Shown here piece by piece: positions 793-1,331 of a stretch of DNA of 5,892 bases; within the stretch, counting starts at the first letter, position 1; each line of letters begins with the position of its first letter. Source of the DNA: a virus (Duplodnaviria > Heunggongvirae > Uroviricota > Caudoviricetes); IMG/VR virus record IMGVR_UViG_2541047163_000021, one strand, 5' to 3'. A model generated the notes under the pieces. The model was not told where the DNA came from and did no database searches. It saw only the letters and a list, made by a program, of their open reading frames with translations. Both the position numbers and the translations under genes were made by a program.

Positions 793-945
793 CTATTGTT
801 GAACTGGATTAAACCAGTAATTCTCTATTGCTCTTATTGTTACCATCGGATGATTGCCGGGGGTTATTTTAAGTTCGGGAGGAAAAGGCTCTCCATCAGC
901 AGCCATCATTGAGTATGTGAAATCCGCCGACGCAGTCCCTTTCAT
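793..945 (-). CDS. 50-aa ORF overlapping the upstream stop by ATGA; either a separate coupled small gene or the C-terminus of a frameshifted 179-aa protein
   Basis: Minus-strand ATG at 943-945 overlaps the TGA at 942-944 (ATGA); stop TAG at 793-795. Translation MKGTASADFTYSMMAADGEPFPPELKITPGNHPMVTIRAIENYWFNPVQQ. The same frame stays open with no start codon for about 68 codons upstream (to 1149), which favours the fusion reading. Confidence 0.4.
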   Translation of the reverse strand: MKGTASADFTYSMMAADGEPFPPELKITPGNHPMVTIRAIENYWFNPVQQ

Positions 946-1331
946 GATAATTCCGAATTTTTCAAGTAATGAGAGCAGTTCCGGTAATCCTGTGTCATCT
1001 GAATAACTTTCCTCATAGAAAGAAGCGATTGCCGCAGGAGATGACAGTTCTCGCTCTGCAATTTTTTTGTAGTTTTCCAGAATTCTTTTTTTGAATACTT
1101 TTCCTCGACATGAAAACCCATCACCGAGGCAATCCGCTTTGCAGTTTCTTCAGTATTCTGGTTGTTTGTTACCGAAACAGAGTACAATCCGGTAAACGCA
1201 TCGCGCACATTACGAGCCATATTATCAATGTATTTCTTCGTTGCAGATTCTAATTCAACTTCGTTCAGACGTTGGTGAAGTGCATGTGCTGCAATTTCCT
1301 GGATTTCTTTTAGTAAATCTTTAAATTCCAT
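942..1331 (-). CDS. Early-left hypothetical protein, 129 aa as read; C-terminal third probably out of frame (see finding on frameshift)
   Basis: ATG at 1331 with GGAG 7 nt upstream (minus strand ...taaCGGAGttaaagATG). The first 82 residues (MEFKDLLKEIQEIAAHALHQRLNEVELE...) look like a helical acidic protein; after the A7 run at 1086-1092 the translation becomes C/H/Q/R-rich and unprotein-like. Confidence 0.55.
   Translation of the reverse strand: MEFKDLLKEIQEIAAHALHQRLNEVELESATKKYIDNMARNVRDAFTGLYSVSVTNNQNTEETAKRIASVMGFHVEEKYSKKEFWKTTKKLQSENCHLLRQSLLSMRKVIQMTQDYRNCSHYLKNSELS

Follow-up and report, generated by a model that had tools for sequence, protein, structure and literature searches.

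A probable one-base deletion in a coding A run split an early-left gene in one STEC prophage lineage

The window analysed here is a stretch of 5,892 nucleotides of viral DNA (IMG/VR record IMGVR_UViG_2541047163_000021). By sequence comparison, it matches a lambdoid prophage of E. coli O157:H7 at 100% identity. The gene at 793-1331 on the minus strand sits in the leftward early (early-left) operon of this prophage, a dicB kil-type operon. The operon order is a cI-like HTH repressor, RelB/RelE, ydfA (DUF1391), ydfB, the 793-1331 gene, a convergent small gene and dicB. Beyond dicB, the source prophage carries DUF1482, an exonuclease and an integrase.

The 793-1331 span is 539 nt long, one short of 180 codons. 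The initial annotation had described a 129-aa ORF (942-1331) and a 50-aa ORF (793-945) that overlap at an ATGA, two A7 runs (1086-1092 and 1062-1068), and a -1 frame that is open into the 50-aa ORF. All of these were confirmed on the minus strand. RefSeq labels the 129-aa ORF as the hypothetical protein WP_000394511.1, with no frameshift flag, and leaves the 50-aa ORF unannotated. The parts of the split gene are listed below.

942..1331, minus strand: 129-aa ORF, WP_000394511.1 (ORF list, RefSeq, homologue alignments)
1062-1331, minus strand: codons 1-90 of the 129-aa ORF, the native N-terminal part of the family (homologues align to residues 1-90 only)
945-1061, minus strand: codons 91-129 of the 129-aa ORF, the out-of-frame tail LQSENCHLL...NSELS, which is without homologues
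942-944, minus strand: TGA stop of the 129-aa ORF
1062..1068, minus strand: second A7 run, probable site of the 1-nt deletion; intact alleles carry A8 (alignments, run lengths, phase)
1086..1092, minus strand: first A7 run, TCA AAA AAA GAA = S-K-K-E, not the mutation site (frame 0 in intact homologues)
796-1062, minus strand: -1 frame relic with 89 C-terminal codons (IAERELSSP...WFNPVQQ); its homologous part in the intact 179-aa proteins is residues 91-179
793-795, minus strand: TAG stop of the relic frame
793..945, minus strand: 50-aa "ORF", whose ATG encodes Met130, an internal residue in the intact protein (alignment; no RefSeq annotation)

Well before the junction, the -1 frame (offset +2) is already open, and it remains so up to its stop. 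It reads ...KKIAERELSSPAAIASFYEE...NPVQQ and then the stop (that is, ...KKIAERELSSPAAIASFYEESYSDDTGLPELLSLLEKFGIIMKGT...WFNPVQQ), with no stop codon across the 89 downstream codons. The stop of the 129-aa ORF and the start of the 50-aa ORF share the ATGA at 942-945.

The small convergent gene, WP_001133046.1 (61 aa), lies at 570-755 on the plus strand. Its ORF reaches 85 aa from a GTG at 498, and 38 nt separate the end of the gene from the relic-frame stop. The RelB antitoxin (2193-2384) and the RelE/ParE toxin (1906-2193) occupy 1906-2384 on the minus strand, between the cI-like repressor (2412-2813) and ydfA. This pair is absent from the same position in the related prophages inspected (ETEC4077, L007 and L011). 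DicF-like and STnc100-like matches were found on the minus strand at 198-233 and 37-186, respectively. Both are sub-threshold, the former scoring 28.6 bits (E 8e-4; gathering score 48) and the latter 29.3 bits (E 4e-4; gathering score 47). They lie directly upstream of the place of dicB in the source genome, on the strand of the early-left operon, and a diverged DicF-type sRNA may be present here. On the plus strand, a 400-aa ORF with a low-complexity EQ repeat (SQEQEQEQEKEQEQD) is found at 4233-5435, at the position of a replication gene; the RefSeq protein at this place is a shorter hypothetical protein of 363 aa. The gene for an "ECs1072 family phage-associated protein" (3810-4301, minus strand) lies antisense, with a YdaT-like gene and replication genes on either side. 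This orientation is unusual inside a rightward early operon.

In a related prophage, that of strain ETEC4077, the same position is occupied by one 186-aa ORF with 80% nucleotide identity. We used the conceptual fusion of the 129-aa frame and the relic frame as query for a protein search. Intact one-piece homologues covered 100% of the fusion length with E values of 1e-62 to 1e-103, so the homology across both frames is far beyond chance. P0001 (179 aa) is 94% identical to the fusion (E 2e-103), P0002 (179 aa) is 84% identical and P0003, a 180-aa E. coli protein, is 80% identical. Six further intact proteins of 177-186 aa (the 186-aa group) are 63-70% identical. The fusion is colinear with all intact homologues in alignment A2, and at the junction KEFWKTTKK-IAERELSSP in the fusion corresponds to KEFWKTTKK-IAERELLSP in P0001. 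The only 129-aa proteins in the database are near-identical copies of the window product, and they align over residues 1-90 only.

The N-terminal part belongs to recognised phage families. PHROG 1363 matches residues 1-92 (E 2.4e-37) and PHROG 2151 (Ybl81-like) also matches the N-terminal part (E 4e-29). Both are PHROGs of unknown function, and their matches are confined to the N-terminal 83-92 residues. The truncated 129-aa product keeps the N-terminal 90 residues, which is the module common to the family. Searches of Pfam and NCBIfam with the 793-1331 protein gave sub-threshold noise only. An AlphaFold2 model of intact P0001 from a 20-sequence alignment was unusable (mean pLDDT 45.6, pTM 0.32).

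The break had been placed at the first heptamer, 1086-1092, after which frame 0 was said to degrade. This placement was rejected. All intact homologues keep KKEFWK in frame 0 beyond the first run, and the intact alleles likewise carry A7 at this run, L011 alone having A6. The alignment indicates that RILENYKK, the -1-frame sequence between both A runs, is open by chance and non-homologous. The missing base is in the 1062-1068 run. Here the window reads ACT ACA AAA AAA TTG CAG, while the intact alleles read ACT RCA AAA AAA ATT GCA GAG, which is A8 with flanks identical to those of the window. The A8 was seen in three different intact alleles, namely those of P0001 (three independent contigs), P0002 (L007, L008, L022 and L025) and P0003 (L011). 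Thus the suggestion that intact versions might carry A8 was borne out at the second heptamer and failed at the first. The more distant 186-aa alleles have AAA CGC ATC at the second run and are also in frame. Since these AAA CGC alleles are in frame, the split is the derived state; in-frame is ancestral, and the A7 of the window at 1062-1068 derives from A8 by deletion. A frameshift pseudogene is marked by intact single-frame orthologues and an indel precisely where the frame changes, and both are seen here (A8 vs A7 in an otherwise identical context). A pseudogenising single-base deletion, one of three alternatives offered at the outset, is the one that this comparison supported. At loci with A8 alleles, the 3' end of the 179-aa gene shares 20 nt with a convergent gene of 80 aa.

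Two probes, a 77-nt A8 and a 76-nt A7 sequence, were used to survey the spread of the A7 allele across 5,426 complete E. coli genomes. The allele was present in 386. The exact A7 76-mer was found in 384 of these carriers, and the other two had one mismatch. In E105, the one of these two that was examined, the mismatch is a T-to-C SNP and lies outside the A run. A8 was found in none of the 386 carriers, and each of them is one position away from the A8 probe. The carrier serotypes include O157:H7, O103, O121 and O111:H11. At the O103 and O121 loci inspected, the gene order is that of the O157 locus and the RefSeq protein ids are mostly shared. Carriers of different serotypes have a common prophage module with identical flanking proteins. 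All nine IMG/VR contigs and one metagenome contig with the window-type allele have A7, and the 129-aa product is identical in eight of the nine IMG/VR contigs. Among viral and metagenome contigs, A8 was seen only in the P0002-type allele. In the phage GenBank collection we found one partial match only, at 72% to the N-terminal 150 nt, and in the species-representative genome collection there was no exact match to the pattern.

The split is therefore restricted to one allele with about 99-100% identity. Because every carrier has A7 in one nearly identical prophage module, the data argue for one inherited deletion and not for a sequencing error. The genome comparison indicates that the deletion is real, has a single origin and is carried with a recently spread prophage module. 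In E105 (NZ_CP071375.1, locus L013), an IS3-family element is inserted in ydfB, directly upstream of the 129-aa ORF; in some lineages the early-left operon has thus decayed further.

Two records were considered as signs of instability in the tract and were rejected. The A6 version P0011 (105 aa, record L012) comes from an assembly that has other A5-to-A4 deletions within 3 kb. L023 has deletions in both runs (A7 to A6 in the first and A8 to A7 in the second), and a second contig of the same genome reads A8. Both are best read as sequencing artefacts.

We also looked for signs of relaxed constraint. Two substitutions are private to the window allele: P7L, at a position that is Pro in 20/20 sequences of alignment A4, and R163M, at a position that is Arg in all nine intact homologues of A2. 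With two substitutions only, they fit relaxed constraint modestly. The relic frame has 0 stops, and its polymorphisms are too few for dN/dS. The SNPs among the A7 carriers sit upstream of the break. The sole downstream variant among those inspected is N117S in cluster variant P0010, which changes frame 0 and is synonymous in the -1 frame. The A7 lineage is so young that an open -1 frame and fixation weigh little either way.

Judged from the alignments, the family is fast-evolving and mosaic, with N- and C-terminal halves that recombine. The 212-aa Ybl81-like proteins have only their first ~55 residues in common with the window family. The window and ETEC4077 alleles are near-identical at gene positions ~110-275 and have ~70% identity directly past the frameshift site (L002, L014). 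This drop in identity suggests that the A-run region coincides with a recombination or module boundary.

Our preferred reading is an ordinary single-base deletion in a coding homopolymer of a prophage accessory gene, fixed in one STEC prophage lineage. We put its probability at roughly 85%. One gene of the early-left operon would have lost a single A, from A8 to A7, at 1062-1068 on the minus strand. Frame 0 now runs through 39 unrelated codons to a TGA; the 129-aa product retains the 90 N-terminal residues, and the last 89 codons persist as a still-open relic in the -1 frame. The deletion goes back to a single event in the ancestor of one prophage lineage, and that lineage has since spread through STEC serotypes almost unchanged in sequence. 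We infer that the 793-1331 accessory gene has recently become, in effect, truncated or a pseudogene. Some points run counter to plain mutation. A tolerated or useful split would equally leave an open 89-codon -1 frame and a fixed A7. Moreover, the heptamer has precisely the phase needed, and slipping there would bring back the ancestral sequence.

As the initial annotation had stated, both heptamers are in slippery phase. Each reads A_AAA_AAA (X_XXY_YYZ) with respect to frame 0, in ACA AAA AAA TTG at 1062-1068 and in TCA AAA AAA GAA at 1086-1092, and they are 24 nt apart. A simulated -1 slip at 1062-1068 gave ...KTTKK followed by IAERE..., a 179-aa product identical to that of the A8 allele. 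A simulated slip at 1086-1092 also gave 179 aa, with RILENYKK replacing EFWKTTKK. Low-level unprogrammed slippage is plausible because the heptamers are in this phase. Reporter measurements in E. coli put -1 frameshifting on A_AAA_AAA at 0.405% when no stimulator is present, at 0.819% when the IS911 stimulators are added and at 24.8% when the IS3 pseudoknot is (PMC4066793, Table S3). In the overexpression vector pDEST17, C-AAA-AAA gave 25-60% -1 frameshifting without an obvious stimulator (PMC1851650), so leakage could far exceed 0.4%, with an uncertain, context-dependent upper bound. Under the deletion reading, the in-phase heptamer at 1062-1068, with the other one 24 nt upstream, would let a small unprogrammed fraction of ribosomes slip -1 and make an ancestral-type 179-aa protein. 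Going by the E. coli reporter values (PMC4066793), this fraction would be ~0.4% per heptamer. Rare RNA polymerase slippage could add to the 179-aa yield. Background -1 slippage at the heptamer thus probably restores a trace of the full-length protein.

The initial annotation had favoured a programmed -1 frameshift. More broadly, programmed or selectively retained -1 recoding could act at 1062-1068, at 1086-1092 or at both, or RNA polymerase could stutter there. Such recoding would set a fixed ratio of 129-aa N-domain protein to 179-aa full-length protein, as in dnaX or the IS3-family transposases. Its attractions are that a slip at either in-phase heptamer leads to a 179-aa product, that A7 is fixed in 384/386 complete genomes of several serotypes with the -1 frame still open, and that A_AAA_AAA is used at proven IS frameshift sites such as the IS600 cluster (PMC4066793, Table S4). 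The high value for C-AAA-AAA in pDEST17 (PMC1851650) also speaks for it. Against it, A_AAA_AAA alone yields ~0.4%.

Candidate stimulators are present as well. The first heptamer is preceded at 9 nt by an SD-like GAGG, and the second is followed at 5 nt by the start of a hairpin of -10.6 kcal/mol. No SD-like element precedes the second heptamer (1062-1068). The GAGG is a 4-nt match within conserved V-E-E-K codons and is found in intact alleles too. Compared with shuffled sequence, the hairpin shows no excess stability (z -0.52, with 60/200 shuffles folding as well), and the 62-nt stretch after the heptamer gave z -0.60; overall, 50-60 of 200 shuffles folded as well. The proposed search for a stem-loop downstream of the heptamer thus gave a fold no better than that of shuffled sequence. 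Three sister alleles with the same hairpin and GAGG flanks are A8 and need no shift, which argues that these elements are coding sequence and not evolved stimulators.

Nor does the distribution of the split suggest recoding. It occurs in one near-clonal allele only, and the two-frame layout is not conserved across divergence: all diverged homologues are single ORFs (179, 179, 180 and 186 aa). Sharma et al. (PMC4066793) list prophage candidate clusters with conserved heptamers, and the 793-1331 gene is not among them. The private changes P7L and R163M at invariant residues also count against recoding. We consider it unlikely. A narrower version, in which the A7 allele is alive as a retained low-level recoding device and its two in-phase heptamers, the first with the GAGG and the second with the hairpin, set a fixed small ratio of 179-aa protein to the 129-aa N-domain-only form, is quite unlikely in our view. 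In that case the STEC lineage could have kept the split since a reduced dose of the C-terminal domain was advantageous, as a "savior indel" (PMC5009743).

A different possibility is that the span holds two real genes, with the 129-aa protein translationally coupled through the ATGA at 942-945 to a separately initiated 50-aa protein. The stop/start overlap is present, and termination-reinitiation at ATGA-type overlaps is common in phage operons. Against this, the start Met of the 50-aa ORF is an internal residue, in GIIM[KT]GT, in every intact homologue. The protein search found no stand-alone 50-aa database protein, RefSeq makes no call, and no Shine-Dalgarno sequence precedes the start. In addition, the 39 codons before the overlap are out-of-frame sequence without homologues. 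Two genes are thus very unlikely. The alignments indicate that the 50-aa ORF is an artefact and no gene of its own, and that its ATGA overlap with the frame-0 stop is accidental. Accidental reinitiation may give a C-terminal fragment.

We also weighed a phase-variable switch, in which A7 (OFF, truncated) and A8 (ON, full length) would interconvert at high frequency within populations. The homopolymer lies within coding sequence, and A6, A7 and A8 versions are all in the databases. However, the A6 record L012 and L023 look like sequencing artefacts, and no A8 version of the window-type allele was found in the 386 complete genomes or in the 10 viral and metagenome contigs. Tracts of A7-A8 are also short for efficient switching in mismatch-repair-proficient E. 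coli. A contingency locus shows tract-length polymorphism among close isolates; here 384 of 386 carriers have the exact A7 sequence, and none has A8. A switch is highly improbable. A homopolymer sequencing or assembly error, with a true window sequence of A8 and an intact gene, was another of the original alternatives and is scarcely credible: homopolymer miscalls are common and clear cases exist at this locus in other assemblies (L012, L023), but the identical A7 76-mer recurs in 384 independently sequenced complete genomes from many platforms and none has A8.

The deletion reading bears on annotation. WP_000394511.1, present in hundreds of STEC genomes, is on this reading the truncated form of a 179-aa prophage protein; its last 39 residues are out-of-frame, and the 50-aa ORF is no gene. 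The deletion is a clean lineage marker for a prophage module common to O157:H7, O103, O121 and O111. The 793-1331 split reveals no new recoding mechanism, and it offers a natural test case for the full-length yield from an unstimulated A_AAA_AAA heptamer in its native context.

Compared with known frameshift genes, the locus resembles E. coli dnaX (A AAA AAG) in having a lysine-codon heptamer in X_XXY_YYZ phase, with tRNA-Lys slippage as a candidate mechanism. In dnaX, however, the shift is conserved and gives a shorter product at ~50%, and it is driven by a strong stem-loop and an SD-like stimulator. At 793-1331 a slip would give a longer product, the layout is not conserved, the last base of the heptamer is A and not G, and there is no distinctive stimulator. 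The IS3/IS1-family transposases (A_AAA_AAA in IS600; A_AAA_AAG in IS911, IS2 and IS150) are similar in that IS600 has the same heptamer and the fusion is longer than the frame-0 product. These elements keep two overlapping ORFs across wide divergence, usually with a stem-loop or pseudoknot, whereas the 793-1331 homologues are single in-frame ORFs. The lambdoid tail-chaperone pair G/GT (G GGA AAG) is likewise a phage gene with a -1 fusion product, which at 793-1331 is a possible one. In contrast to G/GT, whose position and ratio are conserved across tailed phages, 793-1331 is an early-left accessory gene with a lineage-specific split. The prophage proteins of PHROG 1363 and PHROG 2151 share the N-terminal 55-92 residues and the position after ydfA-ydfB and before dicB, but the C-terminal halves of these subfamilies differ, in mosaic fashion.

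Leaky homopolymer frameshift genes, such as herpes simplex thymidine kinase with G7/G8 indels and the poly-A pseudogenes that transcriptional slippage rescues in Buchnera and Blochmannia (reviewed in PMC5009743), were also compared. Tracts with efficient polymerase slippage are 9 or more long, and the 793-1331 tract is shorter, at A7. Nothing at 793-1331 points to a need or selection for residual full-length product. In both, a one-base indel has occurred in a mononucleotide run, and the unshifted product is truncated with a nonsense tail. In both, the mutated run is itself the slippery site, and a rare slip would regenerate the exact ancestral protein.
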